From the NCBI GenBank assembly GCA_016187035.1, contig JACPKL010000010.1, forward strand, positions 94,616-158,615: a stretch of DNA of 64,000 nt, written 5' to 3'. Numbering within the stretch: position 1 is the stretch's first letter; each line of letters starts with the position of its first letter. The notes under the pieces are model-generated. The model worked only from the letters and a program-made list of their open reading frames with translations. It was not told the DNA's origin and did no database searches. This DNA comes from Candidatus Daviesbacteria bacterium. Lineage in GTDB: Bacteria > Patescibacteriota > Microgenomatia > Daviesbacterales > UBA10151. Positions 383-63,871 of this stretch are shown piece by piece. The position numbers and the translations under genes were made by a program.

Positions 383-1021
383 TCACCTTTTCAGAAAAAT
401 AGTCCTTTGTATTCTAGTTTGCTTACCGCTATTTGAAACAGCAGCAATAACGATGTTATTAACATTATCAGATAATTTAATAGTTTGAGAAAATCTTCCA
501 TTTTGATCAACAGCAATTTCTTGCTCATTAATATTCACCTTTACCTCAGGGTCTGTTCTACCTGAAATAACTATCTCTAAAGAACTTGTGCTAAATTGGT
601 CAGGTGGTTGACTAATTTCTAGACGCGGAGCACCAACCAAAAATCTATATTCAAACCAAAGGTATGTGAAAAAAATCACCACTAATGTTAAAACAACAAA
701 TCCTAAAACCCTAGCAGGAGTTATTCTAATTCTTGTTCTATTAATAGGATGACTGAATGATTCTAGGATCCTTGGAGGATGTTTTTGATCGGAAAATTCT
801 CTTCTAAACACTGCTAGAAGTTTATCTTTGTCAAGCCCTAAGAATTTACCGTAATTTTTAATAAATCCCTGAACAAAGGTTGGCGGGGGAAGTTTTTGAT
901 ATTGACCGGCCTCTAAAGCTTGTAGTAATTCTTTTCTAATTTTAGTTGCCTTTTCTACCTCATCAAGGGTATAGAATTTTTTTTCTCTTTCTTCTGCTAA
1001 AATTTGTCCTACAGTCCTCAT
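383..1021 (-). CDS. RodZ-like HTH (XRE) domain membrane protein
   Basis: N-terminal HTH (TLDEVEKATKIRKELLQALEAG), a central TM helix and an extracytoplasmic C-terminal domain. Confidence 0.55.
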   Translation of the reverse strand: MRTVGQILAEEREKKFYTLDEVEKATKIRKELLQALEAGQYQKLPPPTFVQGFIKNYGKFLGLDKDKLLAVFRREFSDQKHPPRILESFSHPINRTRIRITPARVLGFVVLTLVVIFFTYLWFEYRFLVGAPRLEISQPPDQFSTSSLEIVISGRTDPEVKVNINEQEIAVDQNGRFSQTIKLSDNVNNIVIAAVSNSGKQTRIQRTIFLKR

Positions 1022-2156: not shown

Positions 2157-4253
2157 TTAAGCTGAGGAGCCTTGTTGGACGGCAAGATATTCTTCAGCAT
2201 TTTTAACTAACACATCTCTGGGTTTCGAACCTTCCCCTGTCCCTACAATTCCTGCGGTCTCCAACTCATCTAAAATCCTAGCAGCCCTAGCATAACCAAT
2301 TTTTAATCTTCTTTGTAGCAAAGAGGCTGAAGCCCGGTCGTATTGACACACTGTTCTGACTGCTTCCTCAAACAACTCATCTCTATCTTCACCATTACCT
2401 CCTTTGCTTCCTGCTTTACCCAAAGGCATCTCAGTTACTTCAGCAGTATATTGAGGAGCAATACCGGTAGCTTTCAGGTATTTAATTAAACTGTTTATTT
2501 CTGAATCTTGAACAAAAACTCCTTGAATTCTCATTGGTTTTGAAGCATCTGGAGGTAAAAATAACATATCCCCTCGGCCCAATAATTTTTCTGCTCCTGG
2601 TCCGTCTAAAATGACCCGAGAATCAACCATCGAGGATACATTAAAAGCAATCCTACAAGGAATATTAGCTTTAATCAAACCTGTGATTACATCAACAGAT
2701 GGTCTTTGAGTGGCTACTACCAAATGAATCCCTGTAGCGCGTGCCAGTTGAGCAATTCTGGTAATAGCATCTTCAATTTCTACTGGAGCAAACATCATTA
2801 AATCAGCCAGCTCATCAACAATAATGATAATATAGGGCAAAGCTTGGAATCCTGACATATCATTAAACCCAGCAATATTTCTTACTCCTGCTGATTGAAA
2901 TAATTTATACCTTCGGTCCATTTCTGCCATAGCCCATTTAAGAGAAGATAAGATTTTTTCTGGATCTGTAATAACAGGAGTGAGCAAATGAGGAATACCA
3001 TTATAATTTGTCAATTCCACTCTTTTGGGATCGATCAAAATCAGTTTTAATTCATCTGGTGAATTTCTAAATAGTAAAGAGGTGATCACCGCATTTAACA
3101 TGATTGATTTACCTGAACCTGTGGTACCAGCGATTAAACAGTGAGGCATTCGGTCAATATCTACTATCATGGCCTTAGATGAAGTATCCCTTCCTAAAGC
3201 AACTGCTAATTTTGACTTATGCCTTCGCATCTCATCAGAGGCTAATAATTGTTTTAATCCAACGACCTCCAACGACCTGTTTGGCACCTCTATTCCTACT
3301 AAAGATTTACCGGGAATAGGAGCTTCTATCCTGACCGTACCAGTGGGTGTAGCTAAAGCTAAAGCCAAATCATGTTGTAGATTAGCTATTTTGGAGATTT
3401 TGGTACCTGCTGATATTTCTAAAGCATATTGAGTAACAGCCGGACCACCATTTACCTCTGCTACTCTGGCTTGTATACCAAAAGAGTCTAAAGTCCTTTC
3501 TATAATAGCTGCACTTTTTTTAACATCACCTCTGTCAGCTGGAGAACCAACTTTATCAGATAATAAAGATAGCACCGGGTATTTCCATACTTTTGATTGT
3601 CCAGCCATATTCTGCACTAAAGCATCTGCAATAATAGGCTCTTTGGTAAAAACTGGCGTATTCCTTACTTGAGGCTTCTCATCTACCCCGTAAACCTTAA
3701 TTGGAATATGTTTGGCCTCAAATGTTCTTTGTCTTACGAACAAGGATTTAAAAAGATTCTTTGCTGCTCCAAATACAAAACCAAATATTTTTAAGATTTG
3801 ATTCAAAGAAGTATTAAAAAGAACTACCAAACCCACTAAAAACAACAATATTAATAAGGCTGCTCCTCCAAAAGGAGTAACAAAAGAGGCTAATTCTCTC
3901 CAAAACAATTGTCCAATTAGACCTCCTTTTTCATATTTTAGTGCAGCTATCAAAGAAGAGAGTGCGATAACTATTAATAAAAAGCCCAGTAATACATTAG
4001 TTTGAGCAAATCTCCATTTCGCTTTTGTTAAAACAAGTCCTGATAACAAAAAAATAATAGGCGCAACTATACTCATCAAACCAAGTGTATTCATTAAAAA
4101 ATCTTTCCAAAAAGTTAACGTTTCAGACTGTGTTGTTAAAGCAACTATTGATACAACAGCTAAAATAAAAGCGATTAATGTTCCCACTGCAGTGATTGTT
4201 TTTTGTCTTAACTTTAGTTTGGGTAATTTATAAACAGAGCGTCTTCTAGACAT
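2157..4253 (-). CDS. ftsK: DNA translocase FtsK/SpoIIIE
   Basis: N-terminal TM helices, Walker A GTTGSGKS and a C-terminal winged-helix (gamma) region. Confidence 0.9.
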   Translation of the reverse strand: MSRRRSVYKLPKLKLRQKTITAVGTLIAFILAVVSIVALTTQSETLTFWKDFLMNTLGLMSIVAPIIFLLSGLVLTKAKWRFAQTNVLLGFLLIVIALSSLIAALKYEKGGLIGQLFWRELASFVTPFGGAALLILLFLVGLVVLFNTSLNQILKIFGFVFGAAKNLFKSLFVRQRTFEAKHIPIKVYGVDEKPQVRNTPVFTKEPIIADALVQNMAGQSKVWKYPVLSLLSDKVGSPADRGDVKKSAAIIERTLDSFGIQARVAEVNGGPAVTQYALEISAGTKISKIANLQHDLALALATPTGTVRIEAPIPGKSLVGIEVPNRSLEVVGLKQLLASDEMRRHKSKLAVALGRDTSSKAMIVDIDRMPHCLIAGTTGSGKSIMLNAVITSLLFRNSPDELKLILIDPKRVELTNYNGIPHLLTPVITDPEKILSSLKWAMAEMDRRYKLFQSAGVRNIAGFNDMSGFQALPYIIIIVDELADLMMFAPVEIEDAITRIAQLARATGIHLVVATQRPSVDVITGLIKANIPCRIAFNVSSMVDSRVILDGPGAEKLLGRGDMLFLPPDASKPMRIQGVFVQDSEINSLIKYLKATGIAPQYTAEVTEMPLGKAGSKGGNGEDRDELFEEAVRTVCQYDRASASLLQRRLKIGYARAARILDELETAGIVGTGEGSKPRDVLVKNAEEYLAVQQGSSA

Positions 4254-7147: not shown

Positions 7148-7991
7148 CTATCCTTGTACTTCTGACAAATAATTTTTTCCAGTCACAATTGATCTTTTTA
7201 AACGTTTTTCTAACAGTTTCCTGGTTTGTCCGGCTACACTACCGCCTGTTTTTGCATCTTTTTTAAGTTTCGGCATTCCTTTTGAATCCTCGGTCCGATG
7301 AATCTCTGTGGTGGTTCTTTCTCCAAGCATAGTCAGAATTAACTCAAAATCATCCATATGATCACGTAAATTCTCCCGTTTCAATAGTTAAAATTTCATA
7401 ATCTCTTTGAATTTGAGCGCCACGATTTTGCCATTCATTTGTTAACTCCTCGCGAATGGCAATACCCCTCATCCTTTTTTCAATCCAGGAATCTGGATAA
7501 CCTTTGGCTTTATATAAAGCCCTTGTTCTTTTGGTTGCCAACTCCGGGTCTTCTATTTCCTGCACTCTTTCATATCCCACCCTTGCTAACCACCTTTTAA
7601 AAGGTTCTGCCTTAGGTGAGGGAATTGATTGGATAATTCTAAAAATACCTTCTGTGTTAGCGCAATCTGTTTCTCTTAACTTTCCATCAAGAGCTTTCAG
7701 TTTCAACCTTCGACAAATTGTCGATAGTTCAACTCCGTCCTCACTTTTAACCCTGATCTTCATTTTGAACCAGTAGTCATTTGGATTAACGCTATCAGTT
7801 AAAACTGCAATTACATCTACTACAGAAAACCACCATTCATTTTTAAATATAGTATTTCTGATATTTTTGCCTTTGAAAATTGCTATTCTGGTTTCAGATG
7901 TTATATTAACCACATTCTCACTATATTCCAAATAATACCCGAATGTCAATAAGAAGTTTTGATACCTATATGCTATACTGCAATTATGCAA
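7148..7991 (-). pseudogene. DinD-like / Bro-N domain protein, apparently frameshifted into two overlapping ORFs (7362..7991 and 7148..7384)
   Basis: The N-terminal ORF carries a Bro-N-like segment (EWWFSVVDVIAVLTDSVNP). The downstream ORF matches the DinD C-terminal region (RDHMDDFELILTMLGERTTTE). The two overlap at 7362-7384 next to an A-run. Confidence 0.5.
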
Positions 7992-23304: not shown

Positions 23305-24219
23305 TTAAAACCAGCTCTTTTTCTTTGAAGATAAATTATATAACTCTTCATAAAGCTGTTTTTCTTGTTTGGATGGGTTTTTAGGAATCTGTAGGTTCAC
23401 TCTGACATAATGATCCCCCTGCCCTGAAGATCCCAAGCGTGCTATACCCTTACCTTTAAGCTTAACCAAAGAACCAGGCTGGGTACCTGGAGGCACTTTA
23501 ACTTTAACCTTGCCAGAAACAGTCTCTACTTCAAACACATCCCCTAAAACCAGCTGGGGAATGTTAACAGTAATTTCTGAAAAGACATCTGCTCCTTCTC
23601 TTAAAAACTGGGGATGGCGGCTAACTTGAAAAATAATATCCAGATCACCAAATCTCATCTTAGTACCGTTATCAACACCGGCTGGAACTTTAATCTTCAT
23701 TCTCTGCCGTGTTAATCTGCCTTGCTGATTTCTTTCTTCTATTTCAATCTCTTTTGTTACCCCATTTGCAGCCTCATTAAAGGTGATGTTTAACTGGTAA
23801 GTCGGACGTCTTCTAAAGGTTTGGCCGAAAGGGGAGCCTCCTCCAAAAATTTGTTCAAATAAATCAAACGGGTCTTCAAAACCTCCAAAATCAAACTGGA
23901 CATTAGGCCCGCCCTGAGCGGAGCCGAAGGGATTTCCTCCTGTATTTGACCAGGAGTATGTGCTAAAACCACCTTGATTACCAAAACCTCCAAAAGGAGT
24001 AGGACCAGCATGGCCAAATTGATCGTAGGATTTTCTCTTTTGAGCATCTGACAAAACCTGGTAAGCTTCAGAGATTTCTTTAAATTTCTCGGAAGCATCA
24101 GCAGTTTTATCTACATCAGGATGATGTTTTCTGGCAAGTCTTCTGTATGCAGACTTAATTTCGCTATCTGAGGCAGATTTGCCAATACCCAAAACCTCGT
24201 AGTAATCTCGTTTTGCCAT
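23305..24219 (-). CDS. dnaJ: DnaJ-class co-chaperone lacking the Zn-finger (CbpA-like)
   Basis: J-domain with HPD, a G/F region and C-terminal domains, and no CxxCxGxG repeats. Confidence 0.8.
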   Translation of the reverse strand: MAKRDYYEVLGIGKSASDSEIKSAYRRLARKHHPDVDKTADASEKFKEISEAYQVLSDAQKRKSYDQFGHAGPTPFGGFGNQGGFSTYSWSNTGGNPFGSAQGGPNVQFDFGGFEDPFDLFEQIFGGGSPFGQTFRRRPTYQLNITFNEAANGVTKEIEIEERNQQGRLTRQRMKIKVPAGVDNGTKMRFGDLDIIFQVSRHPQFLREGADVFSEITVNIPQLVLGDVFEVETVSGKVKVKVPPGTQPGSLVKLKGKGIARLGSSGQGDHYVRVNLQIPKNPSKQEKQLYEELYNLSSKKKSWF

Positions 24220-24225
24220 ATTTTC

Positions 24226-24259
24226 TTTGTCATCCCCAACTTGATTGGGGATCCATATA
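24226..24259 (-). repeat. palindromic repeat copy 1 immediately 5' of the dnaJ start codon
   Basis: tttgtcatccccaacttgattggggatccatata, forming the hairpin atcccca/tggggat. Confidence 0.6.
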
Positions 24260-24261
24260 GA

Positions 24262-24816
24262 TTATTGCTTAATAGCTTTTAAAACTATATGAATTCTACC
24301 TTGTGCAACTATTGTACTGTTTCCGAAATATTTCTGAAATATTCTCTCAATGACTGGTTTAATATGATTTTGTACCACTAAATAAACTTCACCATTTTCT
24401 TTTAAGTGTCTATGGCATTCGCTAACCAGCTCTTCTAAAAATTCATTTCCCATGTCTTGAGGAGGATTACAATAAATTTGATGATAAGTTCGCTCTTGAA
24501 CGGATGAAAAAAGGTCACTTAAATAAACTTCAACGTTTTTAAAATTATTTGAAGTTGCATTCTCTTTTGCCAATTCTATAACTCTTAAACTATCATCCAA
24601 TAAATGAACATGACCTTTTGGATTTAATTTCGCAGCTACAAAACCAATTACCCCAGTACCGCAACCTAAATCTACCACTAAACTACCGTTGGGAATCTCC
24701 AAGTTATCTATCAAGAGTTTGGTTCCTAAATCCAAGCCCTTCTCAGAAAACACTCCTGGTCTAGTTTTAAATTTGATTTCAAACCCCCTTATATATTCGG
24801 TAATTATGTTATTCAT
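24262..24816 (-). CDS. class I SAM-dependent methyltransferase (small MTS domain; RsmC/PrmA-like)
   Basis: VVDLGCGTGVIG motif, 184 aa. Confidence 0.7.
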   Translation of the reverse strand: MNNIITEYIRGFEIKFKTRPGVFSEKGLDLGTKLLIDNLEIPNGSLVVDLGCGTGVIGFVAAKLNPKGHVHLLDDSLRVIELAKENATSNNFKNVEVYLSDLFSSVQERTYHQIYCNPPQDMGNEFLEELVSECHRHLKENGEVYLVVQNHIKPVIERIFQKYFGNSTIVAQGRIHIVLKAIKQ

Positions 24817-24824
24817 AAATCTCT

Positions 24825-24858
24825 TTTGTCATCCCCAATCTAATCGGGATCCATATTA
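24825..24858 (-). repeat. palindromic repeat copy 2 immediately 5' of the methyltransferase start codon
   Basis: tttgtcatccccaatctaatcgggatccatatta, nearly identical to copy 1. Confidence 0.6.
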
Positions 24859-25140
24859 TACGATTTTTGAATATAAATCTTTCCATTTTGGATTATTTTT
24901 TTCTATTAGTTCTATTTTCCATTGTCTATTCCATTGCTTGAGTCTTTTCTCTCTTAATATTGCTTGATTACTATCTTCATAAAGTTCAAAGTAAACCAAA
25001 TTATGGATCTGGTATTTACTTGTAAAACCCTCTACTAAATCATTTTTATGTTCGTAAATTCGTCTTATTAAATTATCAGTTACCCCAATATATAGTGTTC
25101 CATTTCTTCTACTTGCGAGTATATAAACGAAGTATTGCAT
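24856..25140 (-). CDS. GIY-YIG nuclease-family protein (UPF0213-like)
   Basis: YFVYILASRRNGTLYIGVTDNLIRRIYEH GIY-YIG core, 94 aa. Confidence 0.8.
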   Translation of the reverse strand: MQYFVYILASRRNGTLYIGVTDNLIRRIYEHKNDLVEGFTSKYQIHNLVYFELYEDSNQAILREKRLKQWNRQWKIELIEKNNPKWKDLYSKIV

Positions 25141-25145
25141 TTATA

Positions 25146-25172
25146 GATTCCCGCTTTCGCGGGAATGACAAA
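25146..25172 (-). repeat. related minimal hairpin (gtcattcccgcgaaagcgggaatc on the minus strand) between the dnaK stop and the GIY-YIG start
   Basis: Perfect GC-rich hairpin with the same GTCAT...GGGAAT-type termini. Confidence 0.5.
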
Positions 25173-25178
25173 TTGGAG

Positions 25179-27098
25179 TTATTCTTTTTTGTCTTCTTCT
25201 ACCACTTCACCTTCCACAGCCTCCTCAGTTTTGGGAGCTGCTTCCTCTTTGGGTTGCTCATCTGTTGGTTGTTCTGCTCCTGGCTGAGGTCCAGGCTGTC
25301 CACTTGGCTGTTGATACATAGCAGCTCCTACTTTTTGGGCTGACTCAGCCAAAGCGTCTGCTTTGGTTTTAATATCCTCTGTTGAACCAGATTTTAGGGC
25401 TTCTTTCAGCTCATTTATTTTTTGCTCAACTTCAGTCCTGACTTCAGCCGATACTTTATCCGAAGCATCCTTTAAAGTCCGCTCAGTTGAATAAACCAGG
25501 CTGTCAGCAGTGTTTTTTACCTCAATTCCCTCTTTTCTCTTTTTATCCTCCTCAGCATGAGCTTCTGCTTCCTTTGTCATTTTCTCTACTTCATCTTTGG
25601 ACAAACCTGTGGAACCGGTAATAGTAATTTTTTGTTCTTTGTTGGTAGCTTTATCTTTGGCTGAAACATTTAAAATGCCATTAGCGTCAATATCAAAGGT
25701 AACTTCAACTTGTGGCACACCCCTGGGAGCAGGAGGAATTCCGTCCAAAACAAACCTGCCTAAAGATTTATTATCAGCTGCCATCTCCCTTTCACCTTGT
25801 AATACATTAATTTCTACAGCCGGCTGGTTATCTGCAGCTGTTGAAAATACCTCAGATTTTGAAGTAGGAATAGTAGTATTTCTTGGGATTAATGGCGTCC
25901 TTACTCCACCTAAGGTTTCTATACCTAAAGTCAGGGGAGTCACATCTAAAAGCAGCACGTCTTTAACTTCTCCTCCCAACACTCCACCCTGGATAGCAGC
26001 TCCCACAGCTACCACTTCATCGGGGTTAATCCCTTTGTGCGGTTCTTTGCCAAAAAAGTCTTGGACCGACCTTTGACAGAGGGGCATCCTGGTCATTCCA
26101 CCCACCAGCACTACTTCATCAACATCTTTTGCTTCTATCTTGGCATCTTTTAAGGCAGCTTTAACAGCATCAAAGGTCTTGTCAATTAAAGGTTTAACCA
26201 TAGCTTCAAGTTTTGCTCTTGACAGCTTCATCTCCAAATGCTTGGGGCCAGAGGCATCAGCTGTGATAAAGGGAATGGAGATTGCTGCCTCCTGGGTTGA
26301 GGACAATTCAATTTTCGCTTTTTCTGCAGCATCCCTTAACCTTTGCAAAGCCTGTCTGTCGCCTTTAAGATCAATTCCCTGCTCTTTTTTAAATTCTTCT
26401 GCTAACCAGTCCAAAATCACCTGGTCAAAATCATCTCCACCCAAATGAGTATCACCATTAGTTGATTTAACCTCAAATACACCGTCTCCCAACTCAAGGA
26501 TGGAGATATCAAAAGTTCCGCCACCTAAATCATAAACAGCAATGGTATGTGCGTGAGCTTTATCCAAACCATAAGCCAAAGCAGCAGCAGTCGGCTCATT
26601 AATAATCCTTTGAACATTTAACCCGGCTATTTCACCAGCTTGTTTGGTGGCTTGCCTTTGGGCGTCATCAAAATAGGCCGGAACTGTGATAACTGCATCT
26701 GTCACTTTCTCACCCAAATAGCCTTCAGCATCTGCTTTAATCTTTTGTAAAATCTGGGCAGAAATTTCCTGGGGGGTATACTCATGGCCTTCTACTTCCA
26801 CAACAGCCATACCTTCCCTGCCTTCTTTGATAGTGTAAGGAAGCCATTTAATATCTCTTTGCACTTCAGGATCTTTAAACTTTCTGCCCATTAACCTCTT
26901 GATAGAAAAGATGGTTTCTTTAGGGTTTACTACAGCCTGTCTTTTGGCTACCCTGCCAACAATGTTTTTAATAGGATTAACAACAGAAGGGATAATATTT
27001 TCCCCCTCAGCACTATGAATAACTTTGGGCTTACCACCTTCCATTACAGCCACGGCAGAATTGGTTGTTCCTAAATCAATGCCTACAATTTTGCTCAT
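25179..27098 (-). CDS. dnaK: chaperone DnaK (Hsp70)
   Basis: [18 protein letters not shown] and related motifs. A canonical AAGGAGG Shine-Dalgarno lies upstream. Its start overlaps the grpE stop. Confidence 0.95.
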
Positions 27099-27649
27099 AT
27101 TGCCTCCTTAATAGATCCTTCGGCTCGTCCGCCTTCGGCGAGACTTCGCTCAGGATGATCGTTTGACTTTCGTCCCACGATCACCTGAGCAGGCCTAATT
27201 ACCTTATCATTTAAAGTATAACCTTTTCTGACTACTTTTAATATTTTATTATCATCCCCCTCTGCTGTGTCAACTGCTTCATGAAGGGCAGGATCAAATA
27301 CTCCGTCTGCAGGTATCTGATCCAACCCCTCCTGAGCTAATACCTGATTAAACTCTTTTACTGCCAGCTCTACCCCCTTAAACCACCCATTCAACTCGCT
27401 TCGCTCGCTCAGGGCGGGACCGCTCTGCTTATCTTGCTCTGATATCCCTGTTAAAGCTTGCTCCAAATGATCTAGAACAGGCAGCAATCTTTTAACCAAT
27501 TCCGCTCCCACAAAACTAGTTAATTCAGATCTACCCTGACTAACCCTTGATTCCAAATTCCTGTAATCAGCCACTGCTCTTTTCAACTGAGAATCTAACT
27601 CAGCAATTTTTTGTTCTAATTCTTTAACTTTGTCTTGTTTTTTTGCCAT
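27095..27649 (-). CDS. grpE: nucleotide exchange factor GrpE with GC-rich insertion-like patches
   Basis: GrpE coiled-coil and beta-domain. GC-rich segments at 27110-27190 and 27396-27432. Confidence 0.85.
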
Positions 27650-27650
27650 A

Positions 27651-28382
27651 TTAACTCCTTAACATTACCTCAGTCACCAAATCCCTGATATATTTAACAT
27701 AAGGCAAAACCAAAGCAAAATTCATCCTGGCAGGACCAACTACTCCTAATACACCAGATTTATCAGCAAGTCCAGAATATCTAGTAAACACAAATCCTGT
27801 TGGCTTCAAGTTCTCAAATTCCATATCCTCTCCAAACAAAATATGGATTGGATCGCTGCCTGTAGCCCGACCGATAATCTCTTGTAACCTTGGGTTCTCA
27901 TCAAATAAACCTAACACAAAACGAGTCACATCAATATCGTAAAACTCAGGCCAATCCAAAATATTGGCTGCTCCTGCCCAGTAGAGTTGACTCTCGTCAT
28001 CTATGGCCAACCCTAGCATATCACACTTTTGCGCTAGAGTAGAGACTGCTTCCTTCAGTAATCTTTCTCTTTTATACCTTTCCTGCCATAGCTTTTCTTT
28101 AATAGAGACCTCAGCTGTGATAGGTAAAGTCTTTTCCTTCATCAGCTCAGCAACATATAATCTAAAACCCATGGAGGTTGGTATCCTGCCTGCGCTGGTA
28201 TGCGGTTGTCTTAAAAACCCTGCCTCAGTTAATTTCACCATCTCAATCCTGATGGTAGCAGGGGAGACTCCCAAATCATACTTCCTTTCAATTATCTCAG
28301 AACCAACAGGTTCTGCACCCTCAATATATTCTTCAACAATTGCTTTTAAAAGCGCTTTTTGTCTGTCAGTCAAATCTGTCAT
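27651..28382 (-). CDS. hrcA: heat-inducible transcription repressor HrcA
   Basis: N-terminal winged HTH (RQKALLKAIVEEYIEGAEPVGSE), 243 aa. Confidence 0.8.
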   Translation of the reverse strand: MTDLTDRQKALLKAIVEEYIEGAEPVGSEIIERKYDLGVSPATIRIEMVKLTEAGFLRQPHTSAGRIPTSMGFRLYVAELMKEKTLPITAEVSIKEKLWQERYKRERLLKEAVSTLAQKCDMLGLAIDDESQLYWAGAANILDWPEFYDIDVTRFVLGLFDENPRLQEIIGRATGSDPIHILFGEDMEFENLKPTGFVFTRYSGLADKSGVLGVVGPARMNFALVLPYVKYIRDLVTEVMLRS

Positions 28383-28385
28383 AGA

Positions 28386-28412
28386 TTAGCACTAATCTAT
28401 CATGACTGCTAA
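28386..28412. promoter_or_regulatory. CIRCE-like operator (TTAGCACTA-N9-GACTGCTAA) overlapping a TTGACA-N17-TAGATT promoter for hrcA
   Basis: Matches 16 of 18 arm positions of the CIRCE consensus TTAGCACTC-N9-GAGTGCTAA, 4 bp upstream of the hrcA ATG. Confidence 0.65.
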
Positions 28413-28674: not shown

Positions 28675-28745
28675 CTTTTACTTATCAGGATATTAGTCCT
28701 CAAATTATTAGACCAATCATTCCACCTGAAATATGTGTACCAATT

Positions 28746-28797
28746 TACTGTACGATCGTACAGTAAAATGGTATGGACATACATATATACGATCGTA
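28746..28797. repeat. two TACGATCGTA-core palindromes (tactgtacgatcgtacagta; catacatatatacgatcgtatcaatgtatg)
   Basis: Perfect 20-bp palindrome at 28746-28765 and a second copy at 28788-28797 inside a larger inverted repeat. Confidence 0.6.
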
Positions 28798-28835
28798 TCA
28801 ATGTATGGGATAGATTTCTGTGTTATGATTAATTT

Positions 28836-32754: not shown

Positions 32755-32825
32755 CTACTTAGATCTAAATAATTAATTCCATACATTGATACGATCGTTT
32801 AAATGTATGTCAACTATTTAAAATT

Positions 32826-44647: not shown

Positions 44648-46651
44648 ATGCCCACTTCGCAAAAGCTCAGTGTAAACTTTCTTGATGACTTAAATTCCAT
44701 TCAACAAAAAGCGGTTAAAACAACTGAGGGACCGGTATTAATTTTGGCCGGGGCTGGCTCCGGCAAAACCAGGGTGTTAACTTACCGCGTAGCTTATTTG
44801 ATTGCTGAGAAAAAGATTCCTCCTGAAAATATCCTTTGCCTGACCTTCACAAATAAAGCTGCTGGAGAAATGATGGATCGTATTTTAAAACTTTTGGACC
44901 ACCAGCTACCAGCTACTAACTACCAACTACCTATTATGGGCACTTTTCATTCTTTTTGTGCCAAAATCCTAAGACGTGATGGCAAAGCCTTAGGATTGCC
45001 TCCTGGCTTTACCGTATATGATGAATCCGATGCATTAGATGCTATAAAAGAAGCTATGGGTAATTTGAATATTCCGACCCAAAAAACTTCTCCTTTTTCA
45101 GTAAGACACACTATTTCTTCAGCTAAAAATGAATTAATTTCTGCACTTGAATACCCACAATATGCCAGAGGGTATTTCCAGGAAACTGTAGCTAAAATTT
45201 ATTTAGAATATCAGAAGATTTTAGAGAAAAATAAAGCCCTGGATTTTGATGACCTGCTGCTGACAACTATTAAGCTGTTTCAAACAGAACCAGCTATATT
45301 GACCCGCTATCAAATTCAATTCCGTTATATCTTAATAGATGAATACCAGGATACCAACCCTGCTCAATATCTGATTTCAAAATATTTAGCAAACAGGCAT
45401 AAAAATATTTGTGTAGTCGGGGATGCTTCACAATCTGTGTATTCTTTCAGAGGAGCAGATTTCAGAAACATTGTTAATTTTCAAAAAGACTACCCAAACG
45501 CTAAAGTTTTTAACCTGGAGCAAAATTACCGCTCTACCCAAAATATCCTGGATGCAGCCCATGCTGTAATTTCTAAAAATAAATTACATCCTATTTTGAA
45601 ACTTTGGACAAATAAAAATGGGGGAGAAAAAATTGAAATAGTGGAGGTAAGAAATGAAATTGAGGAAGCTCTATTTATCTTGTCCACCATAGATCACCTC
45701 CGAGGTGTAAGCGCATTTTTTCACCTCGGAGGTGTAGCCGTGCTTTATAGAACTAATGCCCAATCCCGTGCTTTAGAAGAACAATTTTTAAAATCTGGTA
45801 TCCCTTATAAATTAGTTGGTGGAGTAAGCTTTTACGAGAGAAGAGAGATTAAAGATATTTTATCCTACCTTAGGTTACTGCAAAATCCTAAGGACTCTGT
45901 ATCTTTAAAAAGAGCAGAAAAAATTGGCAAAGGAAGACTGGGAAAAGTTTTAGGATTCTCAGCGTCATTGCGGGGAATCGGACCGAGCGAAGCCAAGTCA
46001 GACTTGGTTTCGCCAAGTCTGACTTGGCGAAGCGAGGGAGATCGCTTGCAAAATGCGAAGCATTTTGACAAGGGCTCGAGTGAAACGAGCGGCCCTTCAG
46101 GCCTCGGAATGACCACAATCGAGCTATTAGATCAACTTCTAGCAAAAACAGGCTATTTGGCTTATTTGGATGATGGAACAGATGAAGGAGGGGGCAGGGT
46201 GGAAAATGTTAAAGAACTTAGGTCGGTAGCAGAAGAGTTTCCTAGTTTAGTCCAATTTTTAGAGAACGTGGCTTTGGTGGAAAATGGTTTTCTGCCTTCT
46301 TCTGAAAAAAATATTCAGCAAGACGTAGTAACTTTAATGACCCTGCATTCTGCTAAAGGCTTGGAGTTTCCGACAGTTTTTATGGTAGGAATGGAGGAAG
46401 GACTATTCCCCCATTCACGCTCTATGCTAAATCCTCAGGAACTTGAAGAGGAAAGAAGGCTTTGTTATGTGGGCATCACCAGGGCAAAAGAAAAATTATA
46501 TTTAACTTACAGCAGGCAAAGATTATATTTTGGCACCAGATCTAATAATTTAGTTTCCCGCTTTTTATCTGATATTCCCCAAGACTTAATTTCCTCTAAC
46601 ACAAACTTCAAAAACCAAGATCAAGATAATGAAGATTGGTTAAACACATGA
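44648..46651 (+). CDS. uvrD: ATP-dependent DNA helicase UvrD/PcrA, carrying an in-frame palindromic insert
   Basis: AGAGSGKTRVLT Walker A and UvrD motifs throughout. Insert at about 45965-46113. Confidence 0.9.
   Translation: MPTSQKLSVNFLDDLNSIQQKAVKTTEGPVLILAGAGSGKTRVLTYRVAYLIAEKKIPPENILCLTFTNKAAGEMMDRILKLLDHQLPATNYQLPIMGTFHSFCAKILRRDGKALGLPPGFTVYDESDALDAIKEAMGNLNIPTQKTSPFSVRHTISSAKNELISALEYPQYARGYFQETVAKIYLEYQKILEKNKALDFDDLLLTTIKLFQTEPAILTRYQIQFRYILIDEYQDTNPAQYLISKYLANRHKNICVVGDASQSVYSFRGADFRNIVNFQKDYPNAKVFNLEQNYRSTQNILDAAHAVISKNKLHPILKLWTNKNGGEKIEIVEVRNEIEEALFILSTIDHLRGVSAFFHLGGVAVLYRTNAQSRALEEQFLKSGIPYKLVGGVSFYERREIKDILSYLRLLQNPKDSVSLKRAEKIGKGRLGKVLGFSASLRGIGPSEAKSDLVSPSLTWRSEGDRLQNAKHFDKGSSETSGPSGLGMTTIELLDQLLAKTGYLAYLDDGTDEGGGRVENVKELRSVAEEFPSLVQFLENVALVENGFLPSSEKNIQQDVVTLMTLHSAKGLEFPTVFMVGMEEGLFPHSRSMLNPQELEEERRLCYVGITRAKEKLYLTYSRQRLYFGTRSNNLVSRFLSDIPQDLISSNTNFKNQDQDNEDWLNT
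45965..46113 (+). repeat. GC-rich palindromic element (GTCATTGCGGGG...CCTCGGAATGAC termini) inserted in-frame in uvrD
   Basis: Imperfect 12-bp terminal inverted repeats, internal palindromes ccaagtcagacttgg x2, and GC far above the local value. The ORF stays open across it. Confidence 0.65.
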
Positions 46652-50622: not shown

Positions 50623-51705
50623 ATGGATTTAAGGCCAATAGCTGACAAACAAAAATCTCAATACAACAAATTAGTTACTCATGTTATCCAGTCATGGGAG
50701 TGGGGAGAATTTAGAAAATCATTAGGGTTACCGGTTTTAAGATATGGGCTTTTTGAAGCTAACCAACTTACTGCAGCTTTTCAACTGACTTTGCACAAAA
50801 TACCTTTTACTAACAAATATGCCGGCTATTTACCAAAAGGCCCTGCTTCTGATTCGCAACTAGCTGAGGCTTTGGAAAAGATTGGCAGAAAACATAATTG
50901 CGCTTTTATCAAGCTGGAACCTAATATCCCCGTCATTGCGAGCGAAGCGAAGCAATCTTCTACCTTAACTAATAAGATTGCCACAGTACGTTCAGTTGAC
51001 ATGAACGTACCTCGTAATGACAAATTAGTAGATAAAAGTTTTATTCCTTCTCCAAAACCATTATTTACTAAATATAATTTTGTTTTGGATCTAACACAAT
51101 CAGAAGAGCAAATTTTAAAAAACATGCATTCAAAAACCAGATACAATATTAAACTAGCTCAAAAACATGAAGTAAAAGTTGAAGAAAAAACTGATGATGA
51201 AGCTTTTAAGATTTATTTAAAATTATATTTTGAAACAACTAAAAGGCAAGGTTACCATGGACATAATGAGTATTATCACCAAAAGGTTTGGGAAACTTTA
51301 AAAAAAACAGGAATGGCCAGATTACTGATTGCCTCATACAAAAACGAGCCTTTAACTGCCTGGATGCTTTTGAATTTCAAAGACACCCTTTATTACCCTT
51401 ATGGCGGATCTAACAAAAACCATCCGGAAGTAATGGCCAGTAACTTGATAGCCTGGGAAGCTATAACTTTAGGTAAAAAGCTGAAGCTTAAAAAGTTTGA
51501 TATGTGGGGAGCTTTGGGACCTGATGCTAATTCCAAAGATCCCTGGTATGGATTTCATAGATTTAAAGCTGGTTTCGGAGGAAAACTCATAGAATATATC
51601 GGCACTTATGATTTAGTCTTTGACTGGCCACTTTACTGGATGTTTACTTTAATAGATAAATTAACACCACTAAAAGTCTTTCTGTTAAAATTACTTGGAA
51701 AATAG
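50623..51705 (+). CDS. FemAB-family peptidoglycan interpeptide-bridge peptidyltransferase, carrying an in-frame palindromic insert
   Basis: FemAB/MurM-like N-terminus (HVIQSWEWGEF) and a GNAT-like C-terminal half. Insert at 50932-51021. Confidence 0.7.
   Translation: MDLRPIADKQKSQYNKLVTHVIQSWEWGEFRKSLGLPVLRYGLFEANQLTAAFQLTLHKIPFTNKYAGYLPKGPASDSQLAEALEKIGRKHNCAFIKLEPNIPVIASEAKQSSTLTNKIATVRSVDMNVPRNDKLVDKSFIPSPKPLFTKYNFVLDLTQSEEQILKNMHSKTRYNIKLAQKHEVKVEEKTDDEAFKIYLKLYFETTKRQGYHGHNEYYHQKVWETLKKTGMARLLIASYKNEPLTAWMLLNFKDTLYYPYGGSNKNHPEVMASNLIAWEAITLGKKLKLKKFDMWGALGPDANSKDPWYGFHRFKAGFGGKLIEYIGTYDLVFDWPLYWMFTLIDKLTPLKVFLLKLLGK
50932..51021 (+). repeat. 90-bp GC-rich palindromic element with perfect 11-bp terminal inverted repeats GTCATTGCGAG / CTCGTAATGAC, in-frame in the FemAB-like CDS
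   Basis: Shares its ends, core (gcgaagcaatcttc...aataagattgccac) and translation frame with the sbcD copy. Confidence 0.7.
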
Positions 51706-51777: not shown

Positions 51778-52284
51778 ATGGACACTACACTAATCATCTC
51801 CGGAGGTATTTTGATAGGCTGCATTATATCCCTATCCTGGTTTGCTGGCTCTGATGCACCCTTTGTACCCACCAAAATGGATCATATCAGAAAAATCCTC
51901 AAGCTTGCCGGAGTTAAAAAAGGAAAAAGATTTTATGAGCTAGGATCTGGTGATGGCAGGGTTGTCCTTGCTGCTGCCAAACTGGGTGCTTATGCCGTTG
52001 GCATAGAACAATCCTGGATTAGGATTTTATATTCCAAACAATTAGCTTTACACCTTCCAGGTATCAACGTAAAGTTCTATCATGGAAATTTATTTTCCAA
52101 ATCCTATAAAGATGCTGATATTATTTATATTTACCTGCTTCATAAAGGTGTTAAGAAACTGGAGGAAAAGCTTAAAAAGGAATTAAAAAAAGGTGCTATA
52201 GTAATTACCCAAACTTATCATTTCCCAAACTGGAGACCATTTAAAAAAGAGGGGGATTTTTGGTTGTACAAACAAACATTTTAG
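51778..52284 (+). CDS. small class I methyltransferase-like protein
   Basis: YELGSGDGRVVLAAAKLGAYAVGIE Rossmann motif I. Confidence 0.5.
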   Translation: MDTTLIISGGILIGCIISLSWFAGSDAPFVPTKMDHIRKILKLAGVKKGKRFYELGSGDGRVVLAAAKLGAYAVGIEQSWIRILYSKQLALHLPGINVKFYHGNLFSKSYKDADIIYIYLLHKGVKKLEEKLKKELKKGAIVITQTYHFPNWRPFKKEGDFWLYKQTF

Positions 52285-53468
52285 TGTACGATCGTACAAG
52301 CAATTGGTACGGCTTTTGTAATCTGCTCAAGTCTCTCGTTTCTAATTGTATACAAATCCTCTATTCTGACCCCACCAAACATAGGAATATAAATCCCAGG
52401 CTCTATGGAAAAAACCATTCCTGTCTTTAAAACTTCCTTGCTTTTGGGTGAAAGGGAAGGATGTTCATGAACTTCAAGTCCTATCCCATGACCTAAGGAG
52501 TGAGGTAAATTCGGATAACCCTTAGACTTAATATAATCCCTGGCTACTTTGTCTACATCTGCTGACTGCACTTGCTTAGTAGAATTAATATAGTCTACTG
52601 CTTTCTTTTGTGCTTCTAAAGCTACCTCGTACATTTCCTGTTGTTTCCTGATAGGTTTTCCAAAAAATACAGTCCTGGTCATATCAGAACAATAATTTTC
52701 CCATTTTACTCCGAAATCGAGAAGGACGATTAGTCCTTCTCGTCCTGAGCGAGACTTCGACGGTGAGCTCAGTCGAACCGCGGAGCGAGTCGCACGTTCG
52801 ACAAGCTCAGTGCGACCCTGAGCGACAGTCGAATGGGTCGAAAGACCCAAAACAGTTTGTCCAGTTTGATGATGCGGTATAGCAGAATTTTTACCAAAAG
52901 CAACTATAGCTGGAAAAGAAAACTCTCCTCCTTGCCCTTTAATAAAATCCTCCAATTTATTAGCAATTTCTTTTTCAGTTACACCTATTTTAATCTGTTT
53001 TAAAATATACTCAAAAGCCAAATCCCCTATCTTACAAGCCTTTTTTATTTTCTTTATTTCATCAGGAGTTTTTATGCTCCTATTTAATTTAAAATGTTTT
53101 GTGGTTTTAAAATGCTTTTTTACTAATTTTGCCTCTAGTACAGTTAAATTATCCTCCTCTATTCCTAAAATTTTAATTTGATTTTTTAGCTTTTTAAACA
53201 ACTGTTCCGTTGGTGTTTGATGACTTCTTTCAAAAAGTTCAAAATGTGGCACTTGTTTTTTTATGGCATGGGTATATCTGCCATCAGTAATAATATATTG
53301 AAGATTATTTCCTATTATTAAGTAGGCTTCTCTTTCTTCCTTTGAAAAATTAGCATAACCTGTCAGATAAGTAATATTAGAAACAGAGGAAATAAAAACT
53401 GCATCTAATTTTCTTTCTTTAAGATTTTCCCTGATATTTTTTAATCTGGTTACAAACATGCCCCACAT
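52281..53468 (-). CDS. pepP: Xaa-Pro aminopeptidase (M24B), carrying a GC-rich in-frame insert
   Basis: Creatinase-like N-domain with M24 metal ligands (HGIGLEVHE) at the C-terminus. GC-rich insert at about 52745-52855. Confidence 0.8.
   Translation of the reverse strand: MWGMFVTRLKNIRENLKERKLDAVFISSVSNITYLTGYANFSKEEREAYLIIGNNLQYIITDGRYTHAIKKQVPHFELFERSHQTPTEQLFKKLKNQIKILGIEEDNLTVLEAKLVKKHFKTTKHFKLNRSIKTPDEIKKIKKACKIGDLAFEYILKQIKIGVTEKEIANKLEDFIKGQGGEFSFPAIVAFGKNSAIPHHQTGQTVLGLSTHSTVAQGRTELVERATRSAVRLSSPSKSRSGREGLIVLLDFGVKWENYCSDMTRTVFFGKPIRKQQEMYEVALEAQKKAVDYINSTKQVQSADVDKVARDYIKSKGYPNLPHSLGHGIGLEVHEHPSLSPKSKEVLKTGMVFSIEPGIYIPMFGGVRIEDLYTIRNERLEQITKAVPIACTIVH
52285..52298. repeat. TGTACGATCGTACA palindrome at a convergent gene junction
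   Basis: Perfect 14-bp palindrome between the 51778..52284 (+) and pepP (-) stops. Confidence 0.6.
52745..52855 (-). repeat. GC-rich palindromic in-frame insert within pepP, related to the grpE patch by the shared 11-mer gcgagacttcg
   Basis: Multiple internal inverted repeats (gctcagg/cctgagc, gggtctttcgaccc). Encodes HSTVAQGRTELVERATRSAVRLSSPSKSRSGREG. Confidence 0.55.
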
Positions 53469-53488: not shown

Positions 53489-54733
53489 TTGATGAAACTT
53501 CTTCATTTTTCTGATCTTCATATTGGGATGGAAAATTATGCTAAATTGGATCCTGAAACAGGATTATCCTCAAGACTTTTGGACTTTTTTAAAACTTTTG
53601 ATTTTATTGTTGAAACTGCTTTTACAGAAGATGTTGATGCTGTTATTTTTGCTGGAGATGCTTATAAAACCCGTGACCCAAACCCTACCCAGCAAAGAGG
53701 TTTTGGTGAAAGAATTAAAAAACTAGCCAAAAAAATCCCGGTAATATTGGTCGTGGGAAACCACGATACTCCTAATGCTGACGGCAAAGCTAATACTTTG
53801 GATATATATTCTGCTTTGGAAATAGAAAATGTTTTGGTATCAAGAAAACCTGAGTACTTAGAAATCTCCACTAAATCAGGCTCCTTACAAATTATCACTC
53901 TTCCCTGGCTGCATAAAAATGACTACAAAACAATCGGGGATAAACTGCAACTGCAGTATGACAAAATCAAACCTTCCTCTCCTGCTATACTTTTATCACA
54001 TGCTGAAGTAGAAGGAGCAACATATGGGTCTGAAAAAGGCCTGGCAATTGCAAATGATGTGACTATTCCCCTGCCTCTTTTACAGGATAAAAGAATATCT
54101 TATGCGGCTTTAGGCCATATCCACAAACATCAAGTTTTATCAAAAAACCCTTTGGTTGTTTACTGCGGCTCTCCCCAAAGGATTGATTTCGGAGAAGAAA
54201 AGGAAGAAAAAGGCATATGCCTTGTGGAAATAAGTCCCTCTTTGTCATTGCGAGCGACAGCGAAGCAATCTTCCACCTCCAATAATAAGATTGCCACGTC
54301 CTCGTCTACGGCGACTCCTCGCAATGACGGTTTTACCGCCTCTTTTCAATTTATCCCTACCAATGCCAGAAAATTTTTAACCATTATCGTTAATTTAAAA
54401 AACGGACAAGAAAACCCTACTCAAACCATTCTGGAAGAAATTCAAAATTATGATATTAAAGACAAGATAGTCAGGCTGATTATAAACATCCCTGCTGATT
54501 GTAATAAAGAAATCCATATGGACAAAATTAAAAAAGCTTTATCCGCCTCTCACCTGATTGCCGGTATTTCCAGAAATGTGGAAAGAGTAGAAAGGGTGAA
54601 GTTTGATGGAGGGAAAGAAGTGGAAACTTTAACACCAGTTATGGCTTTAAGAAAATATTTTGAGTTTAAAAAATACCCTCTTCAAAAACAAAAAGAGTTG
54701 GAAAAATACGCTGCCCAGCTGTTAGATAGTTAA
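53489..54733 (+). CDS. sbcD: exonuclease SbcD (Mre11-like), carrying an in-frame palindromic insert
   Basis: LLHFSDLHIG phosphoesterase motif I. Insert at 54244-54328. Confidence 0.85.
   Translation: MMKLLHFSDLHIGMENYAKLDPETGLSSRLLDFFKTFDFIVETAFTEDVDAVIFAGDAYKTRDPNPTQQRGFGERIKKLAKKIPVILVVGNHDTPNADGKANTLDIYSALEIENVLVSRKPEYLEISTKSGSLQIITLPWLHKNDYKTIGDKLQLQYDKIKPSSPAILLSHAEVEGATYGSEKGLAIANDVTIPLPLLQDKRISYAALGHIHKHQVLSKNPLVVYCGSPQRIDFGEEKEEKGICLVEISPSLSLRATAKQSSTSNNKIATSSSTATPRNDGFTASFQFIPTNARKFLTIIVNLKNGQENPTQTILEEIQNYDIKDKIVRLIINIPADCNKEIHMDKIKKALSASHLIAGISRNVERVERVKFDGGKEVETLTPVMALRKYFEFKKYPLQKQKELEKYAAQLLDS
54244..54328 (+). repeat. 85-bp GC-rich palindromic element with 11-bp TIRs GTCATTGCGAG / CTCGCAATGAC, within sbcD
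   Basis: Encodes ...RATAKQSSTSNNKIATSSSTATPRND..., paralleling the FemAB copy (...SEAKQSSTLTNKIAT...PRND...). Confidence 0.7.
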
Positions 54734-63649: not shown

Positions 63650-63664
63650 ATGGACATAAATGTG

Positions 63665-63674
63665 GACGATCGTA
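63665..63674. repeat. GACGATCGTA palindrome copy downstream of the UbiA-family gene
   Basis: Same ACGATCGT core as 28746-28797, 32790-32798 and 52285-52298. Confidence 0.5.
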
Positions 63675-63871
63675 TTAATGTATGGGGTAAGAACCCCCTA
63701 TTCAAGGCAGGGCCAACCAGGCAATTCTTAAAACACTGGCAGAATATTTTCAAGTCCCAATTTCCTCTGTCTCCCTGGTCTCAGGCTACACCTCCAAACA
63801 AAAAATAATTAATATTGAGGCATAAACAATTAGTTAACCAGGGCAATCTCTGAAGAAGGTTTTCCTTCAAT

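Follow-up and report, generated by a model that had tools for sequence, protein, structure and literature searches.

Three short hairpin repeats in the heat-shock operon of a Candidatus Daviesbacteria genome, which belongs to the candidate phyla radiation (CPR), are very probably Ssn-related motifs (SRMs) that belong to an Ssn nuclease encoded between two of them, the whole being a cassette inserted into the operon. We base this on the identity of the motif, the architecture of the locus, the association of the repeats with ssn genes, their absence from ssn-free relatives, covariation in the stems and an identity anomaly of the cassette, all of which were observed in this study. The sequence analysed was a single 64-kb stretch of the genome, referred to here as the window. 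On its minus strand, in the region from 23305 to 28382, the gene order is hrcA, grpE, dnaK, a 94-amino acid (aa) GIY-YIG open reading frame (ORF), here called ssn, a gene for a 184-aa MTS-type methyltransferase, and dnaJ; the identities were assigned by Pfam (HrcA, GrpE, HSP70, GIY-YIG, MTS methyltransferase and DnaJ). Each spacer after dnaK holds one hairpin: C between dnaK and ssn, B between ssn and the methyltransferase gene, and A between the latter and dnaJ. A CIRCE operator, TTAGCAGTC-N9-TAGTGCTAA, stands 3 nt before the hrcA start codon and overlaps a promoter-like TTGACA-17-TAGATT (28422-28394, minus strand), so that ssn lies inside an apparently HrcA-controlled operon. A plus-strand GTCA-hairpin match at 28378-28401 is this operator and was rejected as an SRM.

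Hairpins A (24229-24253, plus strand, GTCATCCCCAACTTGATTGGGGATC) and C (25146-25169, minus strand, GTCATTCCCGCGAAAGCGGGAATC) both have perfect stems of 8 bp, with a GAAA loop in C, while the stem of B (24828-24851, plus strand, GTCATCCCCAATCTAATCGGGATC) is degenerate, with a mismatch after 5 bp. A first-pass annotation, produced from the sequence alone, had reported hairpins 5′ of three consecutive start codons, with C as a perfect hairpin between the dnaK stop and the GIY-YIG start; the coordinates and gene calls proved correct, and C lies 6 nt from that start codon. Its description of A and B as nearly identical 34-mers was generous. The two agree over their first 14 nt (TTTGTCATCCCCAA) and their last 11 nt (GGGATCCATAT) but differ in the loop and by one indel, and the degenerate 34-mer matches A and nothing else, even with 3 mismatches allowed. 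The 34-mer of A begins with TTTG 6 nt from the dnaJ start codon, and that of B, which is 4 nt past the ssn stop, begins 8 nt from the start codon of the methyltransferase gene. The orientation of C is opposite to that of A and B, a point that the first-pass annotation had overlooked; B and C thus form inverted repeats around ssn with their GTCAT ends outward. All three sites read GTC-AT...AT-C, with GTC directly 5′ and C directly 3′ of the palindrome. The three-hairpin pattern is beyond chance, since GTCATYCCC is found 5 times in the window against 0.68 expected and GTCA-hairpin-C motifs 8 times against 1.48 in shuffles.

A full-text search with the hairpin sequence retrieved the report on Ssn proteins, a family of small single-domain GIY-YIG proteins (CDD cd10448) of which the N. 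meningitidis member has 94 aa (Chenal et al. 2025, Nat Commun, PMC11893778). According to that report, these proteins bind their hairpin repeat only as single-stranded DNA (ssDNA) and cut a few nt upstream of it; cleavage needs the three bases 5′ of the palindrome (GTC), and binding depends above all on the C just 3′ (PMC11893778). The Neisseria repeat, NTS, is CGTCATTCCCGCGMAVGCGGGAATCYRG and includes the dRS3 core ATTCCC-N8-GGGAAT, the usual layout is NTS-ssnA-NTS, and the generalised repeat, SRM, is written HGTCWYN(0-2)YYVSBRHN(0-5)WNVSBRGN(0-2)RNCYNB (PMC11893778). Rickettsia is listed there among SRM-rich genomes, CPR bacteria are unmentioned, and mobility of Ssn is raised solely as an analogy to insertion sequences (PMC11893778).

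In the window, the published SRM pattern matches site C and nothing else (1 versus 0.09 in shuffles). Of the 28 positions of the NTS consensus, C agrees at 26, and its core GTCATTCCCGCGAAAGCGGGAATC is identical to the Neisseria NTS core. A and B retain the GTC...C frame, and variants of their subtype also adjoin ssn at five of the homologous loci that we numbered (L021, L034, L035, L036 and L089). The window and Neisseria systems have in common the GTC-[AT..palindrome..AT]-C repeat, the inverted SRM-ssn-SRM arrangement and extra solo repeats near neighbouring genes. They differ in that the host is a CPR bacterium, the cassette is inside an HrcA/CIRCE heat-shock operon, the stems of A and B are of a subtype (ATCCCCAA/ATCCCCGA) that the strict SRM pattern does not cover, and there is sequence evidence, given below, for recent lateral exchange of the window cassette.

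The product of the window gene, 94 aa long, matches Pfam GIY-YIG (E = 3.8e-15) and has no second domain. It has Y6, Y17 and E64, the residue numbers that were mutated in the 94-aa N. meningitidis SsnA (PMC11893778). The protein is 100% identical to one Candidatus Daviesbacteria entry and has thousands of homologues of 58-82% identity in many phyla. A PDB sequence search with it returned no relative, and NCBIfam, which has no model of the Ssn family, gave only a sub-threshold match to a group I intron endonuclease.

The association of the hairpins with ssn was measured in a genome scan that yielded 80 loci with homologues from >10 phyla, with hairpin counts taken over 76 of them, and in a second, independent set of 69 metagenome loci. 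The flank search accepted GTCA followed by a perfect stem of at least 5 bp and C. A gene-strand hairpin was present ≤80 nt upstream of the ssn start codon at 47/76 genome loci (median gap 19 nt) and 39/69 metagenome loci, and an inverted hairpin ≤80 nt past the stop at 41/76 (median gap 12 nt) and 37/69, respectively. Hairpins stood on both sides at 35 of the 76 genome loci and 22 of the 69 metagenome loci. Their density within 300 nt of ssn was 4.5 per kb in the genome loci, compared with 0.20 per kb >1 kb away; the corresponding values for the metagenome loci were 4.46 and 0.21 per kb. Site C, 6 nt upstream of ssn, and site B, 4 nt downstream and inverted, fit this common SRM-ssn-SRM layout. 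In other phyla the SRM-flanked ssn adjoins unrelated genes. The gene is ≤3 kb from dnaK in three distant genomes (L003, L107 and L152; DnaK 58-66% identical), and a preference for dnaK neighbourhoods was rejected as too weak, given 3 loci versus 0-2 for most of 50 control window proteins and 8 for one control.

These counts bear on whether an unrelated miniature palindromic repeat, of the REP/RAYT type or a miniature element derived from an insertion sequence, might stand beside the GIY-YIG gene by coincidence. The hairpins are short, palindromic and intergenic like REPs, and the clade has a general hot spot for insertions between dnaK and dnaJ. However, hairpin density is ~22-fold higher ≤300 nt from ssn homologues than >1 kb away in two independent sets of loci, the 5′ flank is GTCAT and not the GTAG of REPs, and toxin-antitoxin insertions into the same interval in L081 and L084 came without such hairpins; coincidence thus has hardly any chance of being the explanation. 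REP/BIME elements with RAYT (IS200/IS605-like Y1) do resemble the present system in several ways. Both have short intergenic hairpins with a conserved asymmetric 5′ flank and a small nuclease gene flanked by its own repeats, with the hairpin recognised in ssDNA, and REPs have side effects on operon mRNA stability. The window nuclease has the GIY-YIG and not the HUH/Y1 fold, and its repeats begin with GTCAT instead of GTAG. Neither the GTCAT flank nor the adjoining GIY-YIG gene is that of a REP/RAYT pair, the rest of the window not having been screened for RAYT. Integron attC sites were dropped without a formal test, as the Pfam-annotated genes around the sites include no integrase and the GTCAT/ATC frame is that of SRMs.

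We also compared related operons with and without ssn. In L001, another Daviesbacteria locus, the order is grpE-dnaK-SRM-ssn-SRM pair-methyltransferase-SRM pair-dnaJ, and the closest relative (L089/L090) has single hairpins at the same three junctions as the window. SRM A is at the same junction in these ssn carriers and is absent in L091 and L092. In L005 and L009, ssn with its flanking SRMs directly precedes dnaJ; SRMs are also found in L055 and L003, where ssn is downstream of dnaK and dnaJ was not found. No GTCAT hairpin is present between dnaK and dnaJ at ten ssn-free loci, namely L091, L092 and eight loci anchored on DnaJ at 73-80% identity (L081-L088). Across these loci, the hairpins track ssn. 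Between dnaK and dnaJ there are 3 nt in L082 and 23 nt in L087, and L091 and L092 have dnaK-methyltransferase-dnaJ with a 1-nt methyltransferase/dnaJ spacer, without ssn or hairpins. When spacers are as short as 1-3 nt, any intergenic insertion falls just 5′ of a start codon. The position of the hairpins before three start codons reflects this scant intergenic room and says nothing on the regulation of those genes.

The methyltransferase (Pfam MTS, E = 1.7e-40; NCBIfam matches of the RsmC/RlmG type below cut-off) was considered as cargo of the cassette and rejected. Only 150 homologues were found, every named one from Daviesbacteria, the gene is present in just 1 of the 80 ssn loci (L001), and in L091 and L092, which lack ssn, it stands between dnaK and dnaJ. 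This distribution marks it as an operon gene resident in one sub-clade. The Daviesbacteria dnaK-dnaJ interval as such is an insertion hot spot, with MNT/HEPN, PIN/DUF433 and HicAB modules and unknown ORFs in relatives (Table 1). In L005 the inserted HEPN ORF ends with a second copy of the last 15 dnaK codons, which resembles a target duplication. Several relatives have a CIRCE-like inverted repeat, TAGCA(C/G)T-N11-ACTGCTA, fused to TATAAT directly before dnaJ; this suggests a separate HrcA-type dnaJ promoter in those relatives, while the window has no such CIRCE-like site before dnaJ.

We selected 82 distinct 24-mers in the vicinity of ssn genes solely by position and by the flanking GTCAY...RTC. 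Pairing across the 8-bp helix was seen in 88.9% of the cells, compared with 78.1% in shuffles and 28-46% when the partners were slid. Seven of the eight pairs had changes on both sides, and there were 73 double-change cells against 21.7 in shuffles. Between the window and L089, both A and C show a compensatory G-C to A-T change that leaves the stem perfect. These patterns indicate that the stem structure is under selection. Mispairs identify the strand that folds. Among 291 hairpins with no more than one mispair, the GTCAT strand had 24 mispairs of the G.T type and 7 of the A.C type, and the same excess was seen for either orientation with respect to ssn (14:4 and 10:3); the hairpins were evenly divided between the two strands (145/146). 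The folded strand is therefore the GTCAT strand, whatever the direction of transcription, which fits a target on a DNA strand and not an element of the transcript.

The first-pass annotation had proposed that the hairpins act in the mRNA, with a stretch that could serve as, or occlude, a ribosome-binding site (RBS), and had named an RNA thermosensor or translational control of the operon as candidate roles. In such a mechanism the hairpins would occlude the RBS or start codon and melt on heat shock. That stem-loops can form on the mRNA was borne out: all three fold as RNA in 70-nt pieces (z = -2.7 for A, -1.75 for B and -4.45 for C), and the genes are in a heat-shock operon with a CIRCE operator. 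In A, a weak 6-bp outer helix, CUAUAU/AUAUGG, includes the dnaJ AUG, whose predicted probability of being unpaired is 0.27 at 30°C but 0.63 at 42°C. This opening was regarded as incidental because it depends on the CCATAT flank. The proposed comparison of 30 and 42°C thus gave a change at the dnaJ AUG of A but none in the core stems of A and C, which remain part of the minimum-energy fold predicted at temperatures between 25 and 70°C. The GGGGAUGAC stretch ends ~12 nt from the AUG and is therefore too far away for a normal RBS, and positions -15 to -1 before the AUG in A and B, which hold purine-rich Shine-Dalgarno (SD)-like tracts (AAAGAAAAU and AAAGAGAUUU; AAGGAAAAU in L089), are predicted to be 0.63-0.91 unpaired at every temperature and so are not sequestered.

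Comparison with known RNA thermometers such as ROSE and FourU leads to the same view. They too place a hairpin in the 5′ region of heat-shock genes, but they sequester the SD sequence or the AUG in a labile helix, whereas A and C have GC-rich perfect 8-bp stems, the leader is mostly unpaired in A and B, and the window hairpins are not conserved in orthologous operons, being absent upstream of dnaJ in L081-L088, L091 and L092. The ssn-free relatives have orthologous dnaJ and methyltransferase genes preceded by spacers of 1-3 nt or by a CIRCE-like promoter in place of a hairpin. Furthermore, the mRNA carries C in the GTCAT sense and A and B as the complement, and in other phyla the same repeats flank ssn beside unrelated genes. 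No thermometer family was matched in Rfam; the single match was to the Francisella small RNA FtrB and was sub-threshold (RF02748; 25130-25195, minus strand, around C; 30.2 bits versus a gathering score of 66). Thermosensing or translational control by these hairpins is, in our judgement, very unlikely.

The match to FtrB is explained by the hairpin alone. The Northern probe for FtrB contains GTCATTCCCGCGTAGGCGGGAATC, and deletion of FtrB had no growth, stress or virulence phenotype (PMC3091763). Only the hairpin is common to FtrB and site C, C is not a member of that family, and RF02748 appears to have been built around an SRM hairpin.

A milder role in the mRNA is compatible with an SRM origin. 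The hairpins may have been co-opted secondarily between cistrons, either to protect the upstream cistron from 3′ exonucleases or to uncouple translation of the genes and set the ratio of dnaK, ssn, methyltransferase and dnaJ products. They are stable and lie between cistrons of one operon, and all three junction hairpins have been kept in the window, L089/L090 and L001 despite a host-gene nucleotide identity of 63-78%. Where SRM A stands, a 1-nt coupled junction has given way to a leader that is unpaired and rich in A, AUGACAAAGAAAAU (AAGGAAAAU in L089), and the presence of the same hairpin in FtrB means that such repeats can be transcribed. On the other hand, hairpin subtypes are shuffled between junctions in L001 relative to the window, which points to turnover and not to a fixed RNA element; the bias of G.T over A.C mispairs tracks the GTCAT strand and not the direction of transcription; and the FtrB deletion is without phenotype. 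We consider such co-option unlikely, though less so than thermosensing.

The cassette stands out from its surroundings in sequence identity. Between the window and L089, nucleotide identity is 96.9% for ssn, compared with 77.9% for dnaK, 76.4% for the methyltransferase gene and 68.5% for dnaJ; the values against L001 are 78.3, 75.6, 67.1 and 63.4% in the same order, and here the similarity of ssn is not above that of dnaK. Together with its flanking SRMs, ssn is 97% identical between the window and L089. A sliding comparison with L089 delimited one block of 85-100% identity, mostly at least 90%, over the cassette, and a second of 85-93% over the 3′ end of the methyltransferase gene, SRM A and the start of dnaJ, with flanks that are 42-80% identical for the two together and 50-80% identical for the first block. 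The L089/L090 copy of ssn is frameshifted yet still 97% identical to the window copy. This anomaly suggests a recent lateral exchange of the cassette at the same site between two diverged lineages. Identity decays gradually at the ends of the blocks, so that homologous replacement fits better than precise transposition. A scan of metagenomes for closer copies of ssn in other contexts gave only the L090 contig again (L093, 92%), the rest being ≤74%; these matches did not separate transposition from homologous replacement, and the scan served as the replication set of 69 loci described above.

The same data allow a bolder joint reading, in which SRM-ssn-SRM would be an actively spreading selfish cassette in the CPR, with a heat-induced nuclease and with hairpins that now set chaperone stoichiometry. 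The cassette would pass from one diverged genome to another, at the same operon junction, through replacement that is either homing-like or mediated by transformation. It would also seed further hairpins where neighbouring genes meet, and even inside genes, in frame. The HrcA/CIRCE operon would switch the ssDNA nuclease on under heat stress, and the hairpins would replace the tight translational coupling of the methyltransferase gene and dnaJ. We regard this combination as doubtful; if true, it would give the Ssn family its first direct sequence evidence of mobility and would tie it physiologically to stress.

Several points weigh against the assignment of A, B and C as SRMs of a functional Ssn nuclease. 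Sites A and B fail the strict SRM pattern, both having an adenine at a stem position that the pattern writes as B (C/G/T), and the stem of site B is degenerate. The L089 orthologue of B is intact (GTCATCCCCGATCTAATCGGGGATC, 9-bp stem), and the window copy differs from it by a G>A change and the loss of one G. The 64-kb window contains only 3 minimal SRMs and a few related elements, three of them of the long GTCATTGCG type and one an SRM-like insert in grpE, so that a genome-wide expansion would be conjecture. Stem covariation by itself fits DNA and RNA hairpins alike. The placement of the protein in the Ssn family is based on its length, the positions of catalytic residues and the flanking repeats rather than on a direct alignment with SsnA (CAX49033.1) or cd10448. 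Binding and cleavage of SRM ssDNA by the window protein would follow from the Neisseria literature, as they would for any Ssn protein of the CPR. In the closest relative, the system may be decaying: the L089 copy (2623-2908; the same in L090 and L093) has a 1-nt insertion with a frameshift at codon 16/17, and only an 82-aa ORF without the GIY motif is called there, a product recorded in ENA, JGI and NCBI sources.

We nevertheless believe that an Ssn/SRM cassette best accounts for the three hairpins. The strand bearing GTCAT would fold into a hairpin when an SRM is single-stranded, and Ssn, by homology, would read GTC 5′ and C 3′ of the palindrome in the ssDNA hairpin and cut a few nt upstream. 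In a Daviesbacteria lineage, a cassette of the form SRM(+)-ssn-SRM(-) would have been inserted between dnaK and the resident methyltransferase gene of the HrcA/CIRCE operon, and a further repeat, A, would have seeded the methyltransferase/dnaJ junction. Ancestral spacers of 1-3 nt would then have put the hairpins just 5′ of start codons. By analogy with Neisseria, the nuclease may restrict or shape recombination or transformation with incoming ssDNA.

Table 1. Coordinates of the cassette, its neighbours and other repeats in the window, and of features in related loci
Feature	Sequence	Coordinates	Strand	Description
dnaJ	window	23305..24219	-	downstream neighbour; Pfam DnaJ + DnaJ_C; start codon 24217-24219
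SRM A	window	24226..24259	+	solo repeat of the B subtype; methyltransferase/dnaJ spacer
methyltransferase gene	window	24262..24816	-	small, RsmC/RlmG-like; between SRM B and SRM A; start codon 24814-24816
SRM B	window	24825..24858	+	downstream cassette repeat, inverted orientation; degenerate stem
ssn	window	24856..25140	-	94-aa single-domain GIY-YIG, putative Ssn-family site-specific ssDNA endonuclease; start codon 25138-25140
SRM C	window	25143..25170	-	NTS-type hairpin repeat TGTCATTCCCGCGAAAGCGGGAATCTAT; upstream, sense-oriented repeat of the ssn cassette
dnaK	window	25179..27098	-	upstream neighbour; Pfam HSP70, E = 9e-263; stop codon 25179-25181
first high-identity block (vs L089)	window	~24790..25220	-	last ~40 nt of dnaK, SRM C, ssn, SRM B, first ~25 nt of methyltransferase gene
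second high-identity block (vs L089)	window	~24380 to 24204		
CIRCE operator	window	28386-28412	-	before hrcA
SRM-like palindrome	window	27114-27160	-	3′ end of grpE
GTCATTGCG...CGCAATGAC element	window	45964-46113		in UvrD-type helicase gene (ORF 44648-46651)
GTCATTGCG...CGCAATGAC element	window	50932-51021		in FemAB-family gene (50623-51705)
GTCATTGCG...CGCAATGAC element	window	54244-54328		in metallophosphoesterase gene (53489-54733)
TACGATCGTA-centred repeats	window	28737-28816, 32771-32814, 52277-52312, 63650-63689		
209-aa ORF	window	7362-7991	-	
dnaK-dnaJ insertion	L005	34-2233		
dnaK-dnaJ insertion	L081	1148-3282		
dnaK-dnaJ insertion	L084	204-654		
dnaK-dnaJ insertion	L085			
dnaK-dnaJ insertion	L088			
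CIRCE-like repeat before dnaJ	L005	3320-3350		
CIRCE-like repeat before dnaJ	L009	3310-3345		
CIRCE-like repeat before dnaJ	L081	~3440-3470		
CIRCE-like repeat before dnaJ	L084	~660-690		
SRM at grpE end or grpE/dnaK spacer	L001	863-888		
SRM at grpE end or grpE/dnaK spacer	L083	2834-2856		
SRM at grpE end or grpE/dnaK spacer	L086	2780-2921		

Other palindromes in the window were also recorded (Table 1). The first-pass annotation had offered, as another candidate role, that the minimal hairpins are the smallest members of a palindromic-element family, and this was supported: the GTC-[AT..palindrome..AT]-C frame, of the SRM/NTS type, is common to them and to the longer GTCATTGCG elements. The long GTCATTGCG...CGCAATGAC elements begin with an SRM-type GTC-[AT..AT]-C hairpin and add peptides such as VIASEAKQS...PRNDK to the encoded proteins. 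Rickettsia palindromic elements are reportedly in-frame palindromic insertions, as Ogata et al. are said to have described in 2000. The long window elements resemble them in lying in frame in the UvrD, FemAB and phosphoesterase genes; A, B and C differ from them in being intergenic, single-hairpin and only ~25-34 nt long. The last ~25 aa of GrpE (residues 160-184) extend past its Pfam domain and are for the most part encoded by a GC-rich palindrome of SRM-like form, GATCATCCTGAGCGAAG...GAAGGATC, at the 3′ end of the gene; SRMs also occur at the grpE end or in the grpE/dnaK spacer of three relatives. A separate intergenic palindromic family is centred on TACGATCGTA, for example ACATACAT..TACGATCGTA..ATGTATG. 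Finally, a homologue (~44% identity) of a 209-aa window ORF adjoins ssn at eight loci (L027, L037, L043, L044, L058, L074, L166 and L169), and the six of these with taxon labels are from Nitrosomonadales, Gallionella and other (beta)proteobacteria; ssn may favour this neighbourhood or insert there preferentially.

The assignment removes a tempting false lead, in that the hairpins are most likely not a regulatory RNA of the heat-shock operon, and it adds the candidate phyla radiation to the range of Ssn/SRM pairs, whose description dates only from 2025. Among the Daviesbacteria loci, operons that hold the cassette can be compared cleanly with related ones that lack it, and the 97% identity of the cassette, compared with 69-78% for the flanking genes, is sequence evidence that points to its movement. 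For annotation, SRMs and their in-frame relatives would explain recurrent odd peptides (VIASEAKQS...PRNDK) and odd extensions in CPR proteins.

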